64,000 nt of DNA from an uncultured bacterium (GTDB lineage: Bacteria > SAR324 > NAC60-12). The notes under the pieces were generated by a model that did not search any database, was not told the origin of the DNA, and saw nothing but the letters and a program-made list of their open reading frames with translations. Made by a program: the position numbers and the translations under genes. The stretch is taken from contig CBFIJD010000007.1 in assembly GCA_965662845.1 (NCBI GenBank), positions 15,904 to 79,903 on the forward strand, read 5' to 3'. Positions 34,212 through 41,271 of the stretch are shown piece by piece; the stretch's first letter is position 1; each line of letters begins with the position of its first letter.

Positions 34212-34301
34212 GCAGTGCTTTGGTAAGACAAGTTGGAATGTTTGGGAAGTGGACGCAGAAGACGGTCGCCCAAAGTGGGGATTTTGTGGTGCAATGAGAA
34301 A

Positions 34302-35324
34302 ATGATGAAAGAAAAAAATATAACCCGAACACAAACGGCTTTACAAGTCGAAGCCTCGCAACAAACCTTGCCGGATGAGTCGGATCTCATCATCCACGAG
34401 TTGAATCAAAAACTCGCGGTGCTGCGGCAGCAACTGCTAAATTATGAGCACAAACGCTCCCGCAAGGCGGCTGCGGATCCGGAACATCAGCAAACCACGC
34501 AGCGCCTCCGCGAGCGCATCGCGCGGCAGGAAGAGCAAGTCCAACGCCTCCGCGAAGAAAAAGCCGCCGCGCAGTTCCAAGCGGAGATGCTGCCCCGTAC
34601 GGTCGACACCCTGCGCGAGCCTGTTACGCAGGTTCATGAACAGCTAGACCTGCTGCTTCAGAAAATTGAAGACCCAGAGGTGCGGCGAGCACTCCAGCAG
34701 TGTCAACAATTGGCGACACAAATGCTCGTCGACGCTGAGGCCCAATGTGCCTCCGCAGAAGAGATCAACAAGCACTACGAACCCCAAAAACGCGCCGTCG
34801 AATTGCTGCGATTTTTTCGCAATGTCGCGAGGAATTACACACAGAAAGAGGAATGTCCCCTGCGCCTTTTCGCTTCCCCCCGACTGCCCCAGCAAATGCT
34901 GGTTGACCCTGCCGGTCTCCGTAGAGCCTTGGGCGCTTTGATGCAAGAGGCGCATCGCCGCAATCCTGACAAGCAGCTCCAGCTGCTGCTGCAACCCAAA
35001 GAGGGGCAGGCCTCTTCCGAATTGCAGATCACCATCAAAGGCGGCTCTCCGTGGCAGATCCCCCCCGTGGAGAGCTGGGGGCGCTACCTTGAGCACGCCA
35101 TGACTGATGATCACAGCAACGATGAAGAAAAAGCTGAGTTGTTGGTGGGACGAAAGATTGTGCAGGCGCATCAGGGGAAAATCTCGTTGCGCCGCGAGGG
35201 GGGAGATGTCGTTGGGCTAGAGGTCAACTTGCCGCTAGCGGCTCCAAGCGCTCTGAACGGTCAGGCCTATCCAGCCAGCGCCCAGAGCAACCGCGATGCT
35301 TCTACCACCGCGACGAATCCTTAG
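34302..35324 (+). CDS. Coiled-coil protein with a degenerate histidine-kinase-like ATPase (HATPase_c-like) C-terminal domain
   Basis: The N-terminal 200 aa are Q/E/R-rich coiled coil. The C-terminus reads LGALMQEAHRRNP...ELLVGRKIVQAHQGKISLRREGGDVVGLEVNLPL, which follows the HATPase_c fold pattern, but the G1/G2 glycine boxes and the N-box Asn are absent. Confidence 0.45.
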   Translation: MMKEKNITRTQTALQVEASQQTLPDESDLIIHELNQKLAVLRQQLLNYEHKRSRKAAADPEHQQTTQRLRERIARQEEQVQRLREEKAAAQFQAEMLPRTVDTLREPVTQVHEQLDLLLQKIEDPEVRRALQQCQQLATQMLVDAEAQCASAEEINKHYEPQKRAVELLRFFRNVARNYTQKEECPLRLFASPRLPQQMLVDPAGLRRALGALMQEAHRRNPDKQLQLLLQPKEGQASSELQITIKGGSPWQIPPVESWGRYLEHAMTDDHSNDEEKAELLVGRKIVQAHQGKISLRREGGDVVGLEVNLPLAAPSALNGQAYPASAQSNRDASTTATNP

Positions 35325-35329
35325 TTTTG

Positions 35330-35734
35330 TTAGGCCGTGCCCGACTGGGAAGACGAAGCCTGAGCCTCTGCTTTTGTCGCCGCCTGATTCTGCTCTACGC
35401 GCTCTTGCATCTTATCTTGCCCTTTCTCAAAAGCGCTCGCTAGCGATTCCAGCTTTTCACCTGTGCTCATCTTCGATAAGTTCAGCGTTCCCATTTTGTT
35501 GGCCACCCCACCAAAGTCATTCTCGAACGATTGCTTGATCTCCTTGACCTCCAAATCCCGTTCGAGATTGTCCATTTCGGTCTGCACGGTGTTGCGCACC
35601 TCGTTGGTCGCCCGCTTGAACTCCACAAGTCCTTTGCCAACCGAACGCAACACTCCTGGCAGTTGCTTGGGGCCAATAAAAATCAGAGCCACGACAGTGA
35701 TCAGGATAAGCTCTGGAAGACCGATTCCGAACAT
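35330..35734 (-). CDS. tatA: Twin-arginine translocase subunit of the TatA/TatB family (134 aa, TatB-like length)
   Basis: MFGIGLPELILITVVALIFIGPKQLPGVLRSVGKGLVEFKRA is the canonical TatA/B N-terminus. An amphipathic helix and an acidic tail follow. Confidence 0.8.
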   Translation of the reverse strand: MFGIGLPELILITVVALIFIGPKQLPGVLRSVGKGLVEFKRATNEVRNTVQTEMDNLERDLEVKEIKQSFENDFGGVANKMGTLNLSKMSTGEKLESLASAFEKGQDKMQERVEQNQAATKAEAQASSSQSGTA

Positions 35735-35802
35735 GATTGCTCCTTTTTGACGAACACGTTGCAAAAGCCTGCACTTATATCCTTCCCGCCGAGGAAACGC
35801 AA

Positions 35803-37614
35803 ATGCCCGCTGACTTTATCGCTGTCTTAGATTTTGGTAGCCAATATGCCCACCTGATCGCCAAACGCATCCGCCACTTGGGGTTTTTCACAGAAATCTT
35901 TGCGCCATCTGTGGAGACCCAGCGCCTGCGCGACGCCAAAGGCATTATCTTGTCGGGTGGTCCAGCGTCTGTTTTTGACAACGCGGCGCCAGCGCTCAAC
36001 CCAGAGATCCTCACCCTGTCGCAGCCGATGCTAGGGCTTTGCTACGGTCATCAGCTGATTGCCCAGCACTTTGGTGGAACCGTCGCGAATACAGGACAAG
36101 GCGAGTTTGGGAAGGCGCAGCTGCGTCTGATAAAGACCTCTCCACTTTGGGAACAAGTGCCCGAAACCTCACAAGTCTGGATGAGCCATCAAGACAGCGT
36201 GACGCAGCCTCCGCCAGGCTTTGACGTGATCGCCGAGACTCTCCCCGGCTCCATCGCGGCGATGCAGCACCAGACGCGCCCGCTCTTCACATTGCAGTTT
36301 CACCCAGAAGTCACAGACTCCCAATGCGGCACCCAAATCCTGCACAACTTTGTGAAGCAGTGTAGCGCGAACAAGAGCTGGAGTATGGAGCGCTTCATCG
36401 AAGCGACGACGCAGCAGCTGCAAGCGGAGGTTGGCGAGCGCAATGTGTTGATGTTTCTCAGCGGCGGTGTGGACTCTTCCGTCGCATTTGCGCTGCTCAC
36501 CAAAGCGCTGGGCACGGAGCGGGTGCTCGGGCTGTTCATCGACAACGGCTTCTTGCGGAAAAACGAAGCCGCGCAGATCATGGAGCGCTACACAGCGCTA
36601 GGGCTCACGAACGTTCGCGCCCGCGACTGCGCTGAGCAATTTCTGCAGGCTATCGCTGGCGAGGTCGACCCACAGCGCAAACGTCAGTCTGTCGGCGCGA
36701 CGTTTATTCATCGGCTCAACGCGTTCTTGCAAGAACTCAATCTTGACCCAGAACGCTGGATGCTCGGGCAAGGTACGCTCTATCCTGATATCATCGAGTC
36801 AGGGGGAACCGAGCACGCCAACGTAATCAAATCGCATCACAACCGCGTGCAAGAAGTCCAAGACTTGATGGAGGCCGGACAGGTCGTGGAGCCGCTCAAA
36901 GAACTCTACAAAGACGAAGTGCGACAAGTTGGAGAGCTGCTCGGTCTACCGCGCGAGATCGTCTGGCGACAGCCGTTCCCCGGCCCTGGGCTCTCCATCA
37001 ACGTACTCTGCGATGATGGGAACACGCCGCTGCGACACGCTTCTCCCGAGACGCTACAAGCTCTGCAAACCTTCGCTTCTGCCACGACGGACCTCTCGTT
37101 GCTGCCTGTACGCTCGGTCGGCGTGCAAGGAGACCAGCGCACCTACACCCAGCCCGCTGTGATCCTCGGAGCGAACGACTGGGACTGGCTCGAAGAGACC
37201 TCGATTGCGATTACAAATCAAATCCGCGCTGTGAACCGCGTGGTGGCGTATTTGCCGCCAGAACCCGCGACACGGCTGCCTCATTGGAAGTCTCGCCGCG
37301 CTTTCTGCGACCAACCTCGCCTTGACCTACTGCGCGACGCGGAGGAGATCGTCAGCGCCACCTTTGCGCGTCATGGTTGGATGGAGCGCATCTTCCAGCT
37401 ACTTGTGATCCTCCTGCCAATCTCGCAAACTGGGACGCAAGACAGCGTCGTGCTCCGACCTGTGATCTCCGAAGATGTGATGACGGCCCGCTTTGCGCCG
37501 ATCGGCTGGGACGTCGTGCAAGAGACGCTCACCCAACTCTACGCCTTGAGCGGTATTGACTCGGTCTTTTTTGATGTGACGCACAAGCCACCAGCTACGT
37601 TTGGTTGGGAATAG
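35803..37614 (+). CDS. guaA: GMP synthase (glutamine-hydrolysing)
   Basis: The GATase domain has IAVLDFGSQYAHLIAKRIR and the Cys-containing GLCYGHQL. The ATP-PPase loop is SGGVDSSV, and the C-terminus is KPPATFGWE. ATG 35803 lies within the track ORF that starts at 35737. Confidence 0.9.
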   Translation: MPADFIAVLDFGSQYAHLIAKRIRHLGFFTEIFAPSVETQRLRDAKGIILSGGPASVFDNAAPALNPEILTLSQPMLGLCYGHQLIAQHFGGTVANTGQGEFGKAQLRLIKTSPLWEQVPETSQVWMSHQDSVTQPPPGFDVIAETLPGSIAAMQHQTRPLFTLQFHPEVTDSQCGTQILHNFVKQCSANKSWSMERFIEATTQQLQAEVGERNVLMFLSGGVDSSVAFALLTKALGTERVLGLFIDNGFLRKNEAAQIMERYTALGLTNVRARDCAEQFLQAIAGEVDPQRKRQSVGATFIHRLNAFLQELNLDPERWMLGQGTLYPDIIESGGTEHANVIKSHHNRVQEVQDLMEAGQVVEPLKELYKDEVRQVGELLGLPREIVWRQPFPGPGLSINVLCDDGNTPLRHASPETLQALQTFASATTDLSLLPVRSVGVQGDQRTYTQPAVILGANDWDWLEETSIAITNQIRAVNRVVAYLPPEPATRLPHWKSRRAFCDQPRLDLLRDAEEIVSATFARHGWMERIFQLLVILLPISQTGTQDSVVLRPVISEDVMTARFAPIGWDVVQETLTQLYALSGIDSVFFDVTHKPPATFGWE

Positions 37615-37654
37615 CAATCATCTGTGAATCATTCATGAAGAGAAGGTAGGCCTT

Positions 37655-38191
37655 ATGGTCATTTCCCGTCCACTCCAGCTTCCTCGCACCGAAGACATCC
37701 ACGAAGAGAACCTTGTGCCGGTGGTTCGCCAACTTGCCAGTGCGGTGAGTGAACTGACGGACGTACAGAACAGCCGCGACATGCAGCTCGTCAACGCGAT
37801 TGGCGACGTCAAAACAGAGGTGAAAGGCTTGCGCAAAGAGTTTGAAACTTCCCGCAAGGACTCGAACGCTCGCCTGGATCAAACGAACAGCCGCTTAGAT
37901 CAAACGAACAGCCGTCTGGAAGAGACGAACAGCCGCCTAGATCAAACCAACAGTCGTCTGGATCAAACGAACCAGCGCCTTGACAACCTGCATGACGACT
38001 TTGGTCAACTCCGCGCAGAGTTCGAAGGCTTTCGCTCCGACGCGAACCAGCGTCTGGATCAAACGAACCAGCGTCTGGACCAAACGAACAGCCGTCTGGA
38101 CCAAACGAACCAGCGTCTGGAGAACCTAGAGCACTCACAGTCCGAGATGGTCGAGTTGCTCAAAATGATCGCTCACAACACCTCGAAGTGA
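37655..38191 (+). CDS. Heptad-repeat (Lpp-like) coiled-coil protein with about 10 tandem xRLDQTN heptads. No signal peptide is evident.
   Basis: The protein contains ARLDQTN SRLDQTN SRLEETN SRLDQTN SRLDQTN QRLDNLH ... QRLDQTN QRLDQTN SRLDQTN QRLENLE. The QRLDN motif resembles the Braun lipoprotein heptads. Confidence 0.6.
   Translation: MVISRPLQLPRTEDIHEENLVPVVRQLASAVSELTDVQNSRDMQLVNAIGDVKTEVKGLRKEFETSRKDSNARLDQTNSRLDQTNSRLEETNSRLDQTNSRLDQTNQRLDNLHDDFGQLRAEFEGFRSDANQRLDQTNQRLDQTNSRLDQTNQRLENLEHSQSEMVELLKMIAHNTSK
37867..38130 (+). repeat. Imperfect in-frame 21-bp tandem repeats (consensus AGCCGTCTGGATCAAACGAAC) in two blocks, 5+1 and 3+1 units
   Basis: Read directly from the sequence. The units differ mainly at synonymous positions (ctg/tta/cta, acg/acc). 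Confidence 0.85.
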
Positions 38192-38206
38192 CCGCAATAG
38201 CCACAA

Positions 38207-38710
38207 ATGAATCCCCAAGATCCCCTCGCTGAGTTGCGTGAGATTGTCATCCCGCCTCCACCGTCGTTCTGGCCGCTGGCGCCGGGGTGGTGGCTCGCGC
38301 TCGCGTTGCTGCTCACCGTTCTGTTAGTCCTCAGTTGGCTGACGTGGCGCTGGTGGCGCCGTACGGCGCCGCGGCGGATGGCTCTGCGCCAGTTGCAAGC
38401 GCTGCGAACAGAGCTTCACGCTGCAGAGGACACGCTGCTGATAGTGCGGCGTTTGTCACAGCTGTTGCGTGAGACGGCGTTGCGCTGTCACCCGTGGGAA
38501 CGAGTTGCCGGATTGCACGGACAAGCGTGGTTGGAATTTCTCGACAGCACTGGTGGTGCGCAACAATTCACCCAAGGTGAGGGCAAAATCCTCGCAGAAG
38601 CTCCTTATCGCGCCGAAGTGCAAGATGTCGAGCCTGCGAGGCTGTTCCCCATTTGCCAAGCTTGGATTCGCCAACAACGGCTCCCTTCTTCCCGCAGTGC
38701 TCATGCTTGA
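38207..38710 (+). CDS. DUF4381-like membrane protein (Pro-rich N-terminus, single TM helix, Trp/Arg-rich juxtamembrane region)
   Basis: Contains IPPPPSFWPLAPGWWLALALLLTVLLVLSWLTWRWWRR. This family typically sits directly upstream of BatA-type VWA genes. Its stop overlaps the batA-like start as ATGCTTGA. Confidence 0.5.
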   Translation: MNPQDPLAELREIVIPPPPSFWPLAPGWWLALALLLTVLLVLSWLTWRWWRRTAPRRMALRQLQALRTELHAAEDTLLIVRRLSQLLRETALRCHPWERVAGLHGQAWLEFLDSTGGAQQFTQGEGKILAEAPYRAEVQDVEPARLFPICQAWIRQQRLPSSRSAHA

Positions 38711-39725
38711 ATTTCTCTGGCCTTGGCTCGCGCTCGCGTGGCCGCTTCCCTTGCTGATTCGGTGGTTTTGGTCGGCAGAGGCTACTCCTCCAGCGGCGCT
38801 GCGTGTTCCGTTCCTGCATCGCTTGCAGCAGCTCTCTGCGGCGCAAGAGTCGCCGTTGCCACGTCGTTCGTGGGCACCATTGGCGTTCGCGTTGTTGTTG
38901 TGGACGCTCCTCGTTATCGCGGCGCTGCGTCCGCAGTGGGTAGGTGATCCCATTGAGCTGCCGGTCTCTGGGCGCAGCTTGATGTTAGCGGTCGATTTGT
39001 CAGGTAGCATGAAAGAAGAAGATTTGCAGCTTCGCGGAGACTACGTCACGCGCTTGACGGTCGTGCAGTCGGTTTTGGAGGAGTTCATTGCGCGGCGGGA
39101 AGGCGATCGCCTCGGGCTGATTTTGTTCGGTGAGCAGGCGTACTTGCAGACGCCGCTGACTTTTGATCGCAACACGATTCAGCAAATGCTGCGCGAAGCC
39201 GTGATTGGACTGGCGGGGGAACGTACGGCCATCGGGAACGCGATTGGGCTCGGGGTGAAGCGCTTGCAAGAGCTGGAAGAGTCGGAGCGCGTGCTGATCT
39301 TGTTGACGGACGGGGCAAACACGGCGGGTGACATCTCCCCAGGACAAGCAGCGCGGCTCGCGGCGCAGGCAGGCATTCGCATCTATACGATTGGTGTCGG
39401 TGCTGATGAAATGCTGGTGCGCACCTTCTTCGGGACGCAACGGGTCAATCCTTCTCGTGACCTTGATGAGCAGCTGCTACAGAGCATCGCTGTTCAAACG
39501 GGAGGCCGCTACTTCCGCGCTCGCAGCACGCAAGAGCTGGCGCAAATTTATCAACTCCTCGATGAGTTGGAACCCGTCGAACGCGACGCCGAAGTCTTTC
39601 GCCCACTGCAACCGCTCTACCTCTATCCGCTGGGGCTCGCCTTGTTGTTGAGCGCGCTGTGGGTGCTTCGCGACCTCTGGCGACAAAACATCGCTCCTCG
39701 CCTCCGCAAGCCAGCGCATGGCTGA
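38703..39725 (+). CDS. VWA-domain membrane protein, BatA-like
   Basis: There are two N-terminal TM helices, then a VWA domain with MIDAS LMLAVDLSGSMKEED...ILLTDGANTAGD...YTIGVGAD, and a C-terminal TM helix. Confidence 0.75.
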   Translation: MLEFLWPWLALAWPLPLLIRWFWSAEATPPAALRVPFLHRLQQLSAAQESPLPRRSWAPLAFALLLWTLLVIAALRPQWVGDPIELPVSGRSLMLAVDLSGSMKEEDLQLRGDYVTRLTVVQSVLEEFIARREGDRLGLILFGEQAYLQTPLTFDRNTIQQMLREAVIGLAGERTAIGNAIGLGVKRLQELEESERVLILLTDGANTAGDISPGQAARLAAQAGIRIYTIGVGADEMLVRTFFGTQRVNPSRDLDEQLLQSIAVQTGGRYFRARSTQELAQIYQLLDELEPVERDAEVFRPLQPLYLYPLGLALLLSALWVLRDLWRQNIAPRLRKPAHG

Positions 39726-40674
39726 GTTCCCGCTCCCGGCCTCGCTGCTGCCTCTGCTGTTTGCGCAGAGTCCACACGGGCTGCTGCTGGTGCAACATGA
39801 CCAAATCCTCCGCGCTAACCCGGCGGCGCAGCGCTGGCTGTCCCTCTCGGTTTCTCTGCCGTGCGCGCTCCGCGACGTGTTGCCAGAGGTCGCCGGATCG
39901 TTCCAGACACAGCACCTGCGGTTGAGAGATCAACGGTCTGGGACGCTGCGTTGGTTCCCGTTAGAGCAAGATCATTGGCTCGCGCAACTGGAAGCCTCCG
40001 AGAGCTTGGAACCTCGCCACGCTCGCAAAGAAGGCATCGGAGATGCGACCTCGGCGCTGGCTCACGAGCTGCGCACACCACTCGCCACGATTCGGATGAT
40101 CACAGAGAATTTCCAGCTTCGCCAACAGCTTGGCAAAGAGCTAACGCTGGAGAACTTCGCCAAGTTGCCAGACATCGTCGAGCAGTGTGACCAGATTCTG
40201 GAGACGATGCTCGCGCTCGGGCGTAGCCCTGAGTTTGACCAGCCGGCAGTCCTGCCGCTCAACAAGCTGGTGAAGAGCGCTCTACTGCTGCAAAAGCGTT
40301 GGCTCTCTCGTCAGCAGGTGCAACTTCAGCGAGAGTTCTGTGACAGAGAGCCTGTTGTGCGCTGCAAACCATCGCAGTTTGAGCAAACTCTGGGAGCGCT
40401 CTGTCAATTTTTGATTTTACATACACCCTTTCATCAGAGAGAGCGGACGCTACAAACGAAGACGCTAGTAGCGGGAGAACAGGCGGAATTGGAGCTGCGC
40501 ACAGCGAGAGAGGGAGGCGAGGTGAGCTTGGCGGAAAAGTGGGCTCATTTGCGGGCAGCGCTCGCAGAACACGGAGGCGAGCTGCGTGATGAGAGCACCT
40601 CCGAGCAATTTTGTGTGCGGTGGCAGCTACCCTTGCTGGGGTTCGCCGACGAACTGCTGCACGACGGGACGTAA
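39718..40674 (+). CDS. Histidine-kinase-like protein with an intact HisKA H-box but a degenerate ATPase domain (a possible pseudokinase or phosphatase)
   Basis: The H-box is SALAHELRTPLATIRMITENF. The downstream region follows the HATPase_c topology (...LAEHGGELRDESTSEQFCVRWQLPL) but lacks the N, G1 and G2 boxes. Its start overlaps the batA-like stop as ATGGCTGA. Confidence 0.5.
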   Translation: MAEFPLPASLLPLLFAQSPHGLLLVQHDQILRANPAAQRWLSLSVSLPCALRDVLPEVAGSFQTQHLRLRDQRSGTLRWFPLEQDHWLAQLEASESLEPRHARKEGIGDATSALAHELRTPLATIRMITENFQLRQQLGKELTLENFAKLPDIVEQCDQILETMLALGRSPEFDQPAVLPLNKLVKSALLLQKRWLSRQQVQLQREFCDREPVVRCKPSQFEQTLGALCQFLILHTPFHQRERTLQTKTLVAGEQAELELRTAREGGEVSLAEKWAHLRAALAEHGGELRDESTSEQFCVRWQLPLLGFADELLHDGT

Positions 40675-41271
40675 GGTCTCTAGCACCGTGTCCGCCATGA
40701 TTTTGTGCCCTGCGGGGTTTGGGTGAATGCCATCTGGCAGGTTCAGCGAGCGCACGCCGCCGACATCTTGTAAGAGGAAGGGCACCATGGGGAGCTGGTA
40801 AGCTTCGGCGACTTCAAAGAAAGCTTGGCGGTAGGCGGTCGTGTATTCCTCGCCGTAGTTCATCGGCATCTGCATGCCTGTCATCACCACGCGGACATTC
40901 TCGGCTTGTGCCATCTCAATCGCTTTGGAGAGGTTCTCCTTCATGCTCCCCACGTCGAGCCCTCGGAGTCCGTCATTGGCGCCTAACGCCAACAACATGA
41001 TGTGCGGCTTCTGGCGCAGGTACCACTTCAGCCGACTGGGAGCGCTGGCGCTTGTGGCCCCACTGAAGCCACCGTTGATCATCTTTACGTCAAAGCCTTC
41101 GGTGCGTAACTGCTGTTCCACGATGTACGGAAACGCCTCATCTTCAGCGACGCCAAAGCCCTCGGTGAGGGAGTCACCCAACGCCAAAATTCTCACTTCC
41201 GCCATTGCTCCCAAGGGAAAAAAGCCGCACACTGTCAGCACCAAAATCACGAAGTAGCTGATTTTCTTCAT
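40627..41271 (-). CDS. SGNH/GDSL hydrolase (TesA-like arylesterase/lysophospholipase), secreted
   Basis: The signal peptide is followed by ILALGDSLTEGFG (the catalytic Ser block), GANDGL, and DGIHPN (the catalytic His block). Confidence 0.8.
   Translation of the reverse strand: MKKISYFVILVLTVCGFFPLGAMAEVRILALGDSLTEGFGVAEDEAFPYIVEQQLRTEGFDVKMINGGFSGATSASAPSRLKWYLRQKPHIMLLALGANDGLRGLDVGSMKENLSKAIEMAQAENVRVVMTGMQMPMNYGEEYTTAYRQAFFEVAEAYQLPMVPFLLQDVGGVRSLNLPDGIHPNPAGHKIMADTVLETLRPVVQQFVGEPQQG

Follow-up and report, generated by a model that had tools for sequence, protein, structure and literature searches.

A putative coiled-coil rod protein with threonine-lined heptad repeats and apparent variation in repeat number in SAR324-related bacteria

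Lpp (PDB 1EQ7) is a short, heptad-built rod that trimerises and serves as an envelope tether. In E. coli, Lpp can be lengthened by three engineered heptads (Lpp+21), at the price that other envelope tethers become essential (PMC8824477). A second group of coiled coils, exemplified by coronin-1, ccbeta and FapF (Kammerer et al. 2005), carries the trimerisation motif Arg(g)-h(a)-x-x-h(d)-Glu(e), abbreviated R-hxxhE, in which h(a) is I, L, V or M and h(d) is L, I or V (PMC3653964). The FapF trimer is destabilised when this motif is mutated (PMC6173795). The N@d stalks of trimeric autotransporter adhesins contain extended heptad stretches in which position a is hydrophobic and position d polar (Hartmann et al. 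2009; PMC13580157), and R(g)-x-D(b) acts as an interchain salt-bridge motif in adhesin-derived designs (PMC13580157). In addition, the heptad xRLDQTN occurs in DUF5798 and in small proteins of Myxococcota, Acidobacteria and Chromatiales.

Here we describe a 178-aa protein, encoded in a window of 64 kb (the whole stretch of DNA that was analysed), that can be likened to Lpp, to R-hxxhE coiled coils and to adhesin stalks, and is a member of none of these groups. Like Lpp, it is built of heptads and contains NQRLDN; it differs in having Thr at d, where Lpp has Leu, Met or Ala, in being three times longer with conserved terminal modules foreign to Lpp, and presumably in being located in the cytoplasm. 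Its final heptad matches R-hxxhE exactly, and its internal units retain Arg at g and Leu at a but differ by Thr at d and Asn at e. With the N@d stalks it shares long heptad runs, hydrophobic a, polar d, the R(g)-x-D(b) motif and the ease with which both are mistaken for disorder. The adhesins are secreted proteins with a beta-barrel anchor, and their unit is typically [I/V]xxNTxx; here it is LxxTNxx, which puts Thr at d and Asn at e. The arrays are also much shorter, and the protein has no anchor domain or secretion signal. The unit xRLDQTN is common to this protein and the DUF5798 group, and proteins of that group such as P0074 and P0095 likewise place an R-L-E-x-h-E cap before an amphipathic helix. 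The likeness to DUF5798 extends over 44 of 89 profile positions, and the N- and C-terminal modules differ.

The gene opens with an ATG codon, and its features are collected in Table 1. An earlier note, made from the DNA letters, had described ten in-frame 21-bp tandem units as one array at 37867-38130. Tandem Repeats Finder detects a period of 21 at 37863-37980 (5.6 copies, score 127) and again at 38043-38121 (3.8 copies, score 135). Thus the periodicity and the count of ten stand, but the units form two blocks, of six and four, and the coordinates were one base out of frame, the correct start being 37868 and the correct end 38131. Across the 64 kb, a degenerate 21-mer consensus has six matches, every one of them within this gene, compared with 0.01 expected by chance; none of 100 shuffled controls reached six.

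Table 1. Positions of the gene, its repeat blocks and its sequence motifs in the window
Feature	Position	Strand	Evidence
Shine-Dalgarno-like GAGAAGG	37640..37646	+	8 nt before ATG; read from sequence
CDS, 178-aa all-helical coiled-coil protein (predicted)	37655..38191 (incl. stop)	+	ORF list, orthologues, AlphaFold2, pN/pS
Conserved N-terminal module, aa 7-31, LQLPRTEDIHEENLVPVVRQLASAV	37673..37747	+	Family alignments
First putative 11-residue stutter segment FETSRKDSNAR, aa 63-73, leading into block 1	37841..37873	+	Sequence
Block 1: five xRL(D/E)(Q/E)TN heptads and cap QRLDNLH	37868..37993	+	Tandem Repeats Finder, in-frame reading, consensus matches
54-bp spacer DDFGQLRAEFEGFRSDAN between blocks	37994..38047	+	Predicted helical
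Block 2: three xRLDQTN heptads and cap QRLENLE	38048..38131	+	Tandem Repeats Finder, in-frame reading, consensus matches
42 bp (two block 2 units) missing from contig L008/L013	38069..38110	+	DNA alignment; placement among units 7-9 ambiguous
Trimerisation motif R154-L-E-N-L-E159	38114..38131	+	Exact R(g)-h(a)-x-x-h(d)-E(e)
Conserved C-terminal module HSQSEMVELLKMIAHNTSK	38132..38188	+	Family alignments

The units of block 1 read, in order, ARLDQTN, SRLDQTN, SRLEETN, SRLDQTN, SRLDQTN and QRLDNLH, and those of block 2 QRLDQTN, QRLDQTN, SRLDQTN and QRLENLE. The spacer between them measures 2 x 21 + 12 bp, which shifts block 2 by four codons from the 21-bp phase and leaves it in the reading frame. 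Eleven residues separate F63 from L74 ahead of block 1 (segment FETSRKDSNAR), and a matching 11-residue segment, FEGFRSDANQR, precedes block 2; their spacing suggests that both are coiled-coil stutters. As a similar segment lies ahead of each block, the gene displays a higher-order two-fold repeat. On the opposite strand, a 109-aa open reading frame (37809-38138, minus strand) with a GSFGPD-like repeat mirrors the coding repeat and was judged a repeat artefact rather than a gene. The unit also yields terminator-like hairpins with G-T pairs on the minus strand (37912-37928, 37954-37970 and 38092-38108), which are probably a by-product of the unit sequence and could aid slippage.

The register of the repeats can be read from the heptads that close each block. 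Both of these, QRLDNLH and QRLENLE, carry Leu at unit positions 3 and 6, which makes position 3 a and position 6 d. With the register set by these Leu-x-x-Leu caps, the internal heptads read R(g) L(a) D(b) Q(c) T(d) N(e) x(f). Hence the claim that internal heptads have Leu at a and Thr at d, with Leu at both positions in the two terminal heptads, is borne out. The spacer maintains the a/d pattern with F, L, F and F and holds the second of the two putative stutters. At the position of the final cap, most family members keep RLE[NH]LE or R-h-x-x-h-E. Judged by its letters, the internal unit reads as a polar derivative of R-hxxhE, in which Leu is replaced by Thr at d and Glu by Asn at e.

We examined the fold by AlphaFold2, predicting the monomer only. 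With a 40-sequence alignment, residues 17-177 form one unbroken helix (mean pLDDT 94.1); likewise, an alignment of 16 true family members gives one helix over residues 17-176 (mean pLDDT 92.2). In both runs the helix passes through the spacer uninterrupted at pLDDT 98. The earlier note had named a disordered region as the outcome that would speak against a coiled coil; the two runs returned a single helix at pLDDT 92-94, indicating that disorder and a hairpin are both unlikely. About 16 N-terminal residues stand outside the long helix of about 160 residues. At a helix rise of about 0.15 nm per residue, the rod would measure ~24 nm.

With moderate confidence, we propose that the protein is a cytoplasmic, probably trimeric spacer rod of polymorphic length with parallel chains. 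Each 21-bp unit would supply one coiled-coil heptad of the central rod, and each block would close with a Leu-a/Leu-d heptad, the last of which (RLENLE) corresponds to the canonical trimerisation motif. Chains would assemble in parallel, most likely as a homotrimer; the hydrophobic caps, together with the hydrophobic helix at the C-terminus, would nucleate assembly, and from these sites the Thr-lined segments could zip up. The rod would then hold the conserved N-terminal peptide module and the C-terminal helix apart at a variable distance. Slippage or unequal recombination may add or remove 21-bp units in frame, changing the length of the rod and preserving the protein. We infer the role of a length-variable spacer or scaffold from the architecture of the protein, and the oligomeric state and cytoplasmic location from its sequence.

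The same helical rod could instead form parallel dimers, tetramers or antiparallel oligomers, a possibility that we consider doubtful but serious. The C-terminal helix is also hydrophobic at e and g (V166, L168, A173), and such residues can favour a larger bundle; moreover, chains of the SNARE four-helix bundle are found among the weak PDB matches. Work on GCN4-pLI reportedly indicates that tetramers, too, may be compatible with Leu at a and a beta-branched residue at d. Against these points, parallel trimers make up the majority of the nearest solved sequences (Lpp, influenza HA2, SynGAP), and the conserved cap reproduces the trimerisation motif exactly, at a site that is invariant across the family. 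A Foldseek search of the single-helix model against the PDB was uninformative (best E = 8), and the idealised array, searched against PDB sequences, retrieved no solved structure in which an array has Thr at d.

We compared the units with one another for signs of selection. Among the eight internal units, the six codons of RLDQTN display pS of 0.49 and pN of 0.036 (Nei-Gojobori counts), and the resulting pN/pS of 0.07 shows that the heptad peptide is under purifying selection. The first codon of the unit (A/S/Q) varies freely. All synonymous variants listed previously were found, namely CTG/TTA/CTA/CTT, ACG/ACC, GAT/GAC and CGC/CGT. The mean nucleotide identity between internal units is 78% in block 1 and 87% in block 2; block 1 thus looks older, and block 2 looks the more recently expanded of the two. 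Therefore the proposal that selection maintains the heptad holds for the peptide, whereas the accompanying proposal of reduced homogenisation suits block 1 better than the polymorphic block 2. The GC content of the gene is 0.535, compared with 0.57-0.62 in the flanks; recent transfer was considered as an explanation and rejected, because amino-acid composition accounts for the value.

The earlier note suggested that the number of repeats could vary between strains, and one metagenome contig agrees with this suggestion. Contig L008/L013 (JGI 3300038702) matches the window at 99.57% identity over 5.1 kb and lacks exactly two units of block 2 (Table 1). It starts inside the gene, at 37981, and identity over its first 99 nt is only 93.9%. 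Because the 42-bp difference is known from this single contig that begins within the gene, it could conceivably stem from assembly. Of 25 mismatches between the window and L008 over 5.2 kb, 12 fall within about 256 nt (37988-38236). A second cluster, of nine mismatches, lies at 40768-41200 in a minus-strand GDSL-type lipase gene.

Assemblies of near-identical strains also break here. This 537-bp gene is where six contigs from four independent samples stop or start, with ends at 37641, 37679 and 37750 and starts at 37981 and 38162. Outside it, these contigs match the window at 99.4-99.98% identity, and none of the six contains window positions 37751-37980. The longest exact internal repeat in the gene is 23 nt, which is below usual assembly k-mers, and this suggests that coexisting alleles, rather than the repeat itself, may cause the breaks. 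In a population that is near-clonal elsewhere, apparent length polymorphism and assembly breaks concentrate at this gene.

On sequence grounds, the protein is a member of a small family of 102-192 aa, without previous description, in SAR324-related bacteria. Members combine an N-terminal module of the pattern h-x-LP-x4-I-[NH]-E-x-N-h-V-x2-V-x-Q with a C-terminal module of the pattern MV-x-LL-[KR]-M-I-A-x-N-T, and the window protein carries both, with the heptad rod in between. Across 16 members, N19 is nearly invariant and L169 is invariant. The rod between the modules differs among members, as illustrated by DQRLLSV x4, RLENLETSQKETNQ x3, RFEKMDQ and ERLDATN x5. True relatives recovered by the first homology search were P0021 and P0057, and P0121 was found later; a profile search of 1.84 billion representatives added about 10-13 further full-length members. 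Two members, P0121 (106 aa) and P0173 (102 aa), possess a single short block. Named relatives belong to a SAR324 cluster MAG and to 'Deltaproteobacteria bacterium TL4'. A search with the short 106-aa paralogue retrieved only itself and P0021, and neither the exact 178-aa sequence nor four versions with alternative starts occur in a collection of 15 billion proteins. Scanning metagenomes for the family patterns returned a single locus, which is no orthologue but the coiled-coil part of an exonuclease VII large subunit.

Pfam, NCBIfam, PHROGs and PADLOC, searched with the protein and the 16 members, returned generic coiled-coil matches (SMC/Rad50 arms, tropomyosin, tape-measure, JetC/LmuB) and no family-specific model. 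Pfam DUF5798 (PF19111) scores 29.0 bits against a cut-off of 27 over profile positions 22-65 of 89, and one of the 16 members matches; most likely this match reflects coiled-coil composition. Likewise, Pfam UPF0184 (PF03670) scores 28.5 bits against 21.5 over a 28-residue stretch inside the repeats, again with one of 16 members matching, and we treat it as probably compositional. A literature search for 'RLDQTN' retrieved one irrelevant paper, and one for DUF5798/DUF7310 nothing useful. As far as these searches reach, the family and its Thr-at-d/Asn-at-e unit are without description or database model; a small protein family that so far lacks such a model is thereby defined.

The gene starts 40 nt past the guaA stop codon and ends 15 nt ahead of a DUF4381 gene, which is followed by a VWA (BatA-like) gene and a HisKA gene. 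Promoter-like sites and plus-strand terminator-like sites flanking the gene were not found; co-transcription with the neighbours is therefore plausible. We looked for a conserved neighbourhood at 10 loci and found none, since the context differs in every lineage examined. The gene thus looks like a stand-alone gene, and its context gives no functional clue for the window copy. The window GuaA is 60-65% identical to the SAR324 and TL4 sequences, which places the window in a SAR324-related lineage. In a relative with 74% GuaA identity, synteny extends up to guaA, and the coiled-coil gene is then missing; on that 959-kb contig, 1.8 kb without convincing open reading frames (L019:5813-7606) stands where the window has its coiled-coil, DUF4381, VWA and HisKA genes.

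Some features of the flanking genes deserve mention for their own sake. The genes downstream in the window (38207-40674) encode a DUF4381 membrane protein, the VWA (BatA-like) protein and then a 318-aa HisKA protein without a Pfam ATPase domain. MoxR ATPase and DUF58 genes usually accompany Bat-type operons, and neither was seen among the flanking genes at 34233-40674. Upstream, a 363-aa open reading frame (34233-35324; 340 aa in related contigs) has no match in Pfam, and its position beside tatA/B is kept in the relative with 74% GuaA identity (L019:2456-3484).

Family paralogues in another genome occur in a different setting. SAR324 MAG GCA_028282505.1 carries at least four, each with a small HTH gene ~100 nt upstream (loci L001:7264-10049, L006:5528-6884 and L021:3686-5141). 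A downstream gene of 95-107 aa is common to two of the paralogue loci (51% identical), a pentapeptide-TIR gene lies in between at one locus, and toxin-antitoxin genes (DUF433/PIN-like, PIN_3/HicB) are found nearby.

We consider it unlikely, though worth stating, that xRLDQTN capped by R-hxxhE constitutes a distinct, previously undescribed polar-core motif that bacteria employ widely, much as N@d layers serve in adhesin stalks, and that in this lineage it forms the hypervariable centre of a cytoplasmic protein under diversifying selection, possibly linked to the HTH/TIR modules of SAR324. If so, the Thr/Asn core layers might hold water or ions, or keep the rod metastable. Improbable, too, is that the protein is a component of a mobile or defence module, whose variability would arise by diversifying selection rather than by neutral slippage. 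The HTH, TIR and toxin-antitoxin neighbours of the MAG paralogues are in line with such a module, as are the clustering of strain differences and the contig breaks at this gene. The window copy, however, lies between guaA and the DUF4381/VWA pair without HTH, TIR or toxin-antitoxin neighbours; PADLOC yields generic SMC-arm coiled-coil matches only; a scan of viral contigs found no relative; and the variable context across lineages likewise argues against it.

Returning to the spacer rod that we favour, the chain might alternatively fold back on itself as an intramolecular helical hairpin, with block 1 pairing with block 2 and the spacer as the loop. The two blocks of similar units and two glycines in the spacer would fit, but the helix predicted straight through the spacer in both runs, the a/d hydrophobic pattern within it and the existence of members with a single short block make a hairpin very improbable.

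An Lpp-like envelope tether, that is, a lipoprotein trimer joining the outer membrane to peptidoglycan, is more improbable still. No PDB sequence matches better than the Lpp trimer (E = 0.0035), with the a/d register aligned over six heptads; NAKIDQL and NAKVDQL pair with NSRLDQT, and the single gap, of three residues, falls at the stutter. The idealised array also aligns with Lpp, gapless and in the same register, at an E value of ~0.08, which is not significant. The heptad pattern N(e)-x-[KR](g)-h(a)-D(b)-Q(c) is common to both proteins, and ours ends in Lys (K178). Nevertheless, the 178-aa sequence contains no cysteine and no lipobox, and its N-terminus MVISRPLQLPRTEDIHEE is acidic without the hydrophobic core of a signal sequence. 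The NF040598 model for the Lpp/OprI alanine zipper gives 18.6 bits, below its cut-off of 43. Family members end variously in -KSL, -PRD, -KKD, -PTG and so on, so that a final Lys is not a shared trait. The missing cysteine and signal peptide and the low model score refute membership of Lpp/OprI, and they agree with the initial remark that the motif echoes Lpp in a protein without signal peptide or lipobox.

That the repeats are a disordered low-complexity region, or a non-coding tandem repeat in a spurious open reading frame, can practically be dismissed: half of the core positions in the repeats are polar and predictors often flag such sequences (PMC13580157), but the low pN/pS, orthologues with conserved termini, a helix predicted with high confidence and a strict register with hydrophobic caps all speak against it.

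If the spacer rod is real, it would be a natural coiled coil with Thr at half of its core positions over many consecutive heptads, and its Thr-core array would be nucleated by a canonical trimerisation motif. It would then bear on current work on how polar coiled-coil cores can be and on sequences mislabelled as disordered (PMC13580157). Variable heptad number in coiled-coil rods is already familiar; the protein is otherwise a fairly ordinary structural protein, and it has no bearing on any long-standing open question.

The unit itself is more widespread than the family. The first homology search yielded 389 small proteins that have the heptad in common and mostly not the termini, from Myxococcota, Acidobacteria, Chromatiales and other groups. 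Two or more tandem xRh[DEG]xTN heptads are present in 120 of 264 retrieved proteins, in arrays of 2-9 units. An xRhxxhE heptad directly follows the array in 46 of 134 cases, indicating that the arrangement of a polar array with a hydrophobic cap is recurrent. Lastly, three giant proteins of 2716-3986 aa (P0122, P0132 and P0137) match the family profile in 12-16 separate stretches and are presumably very long arrays of similar heptads.
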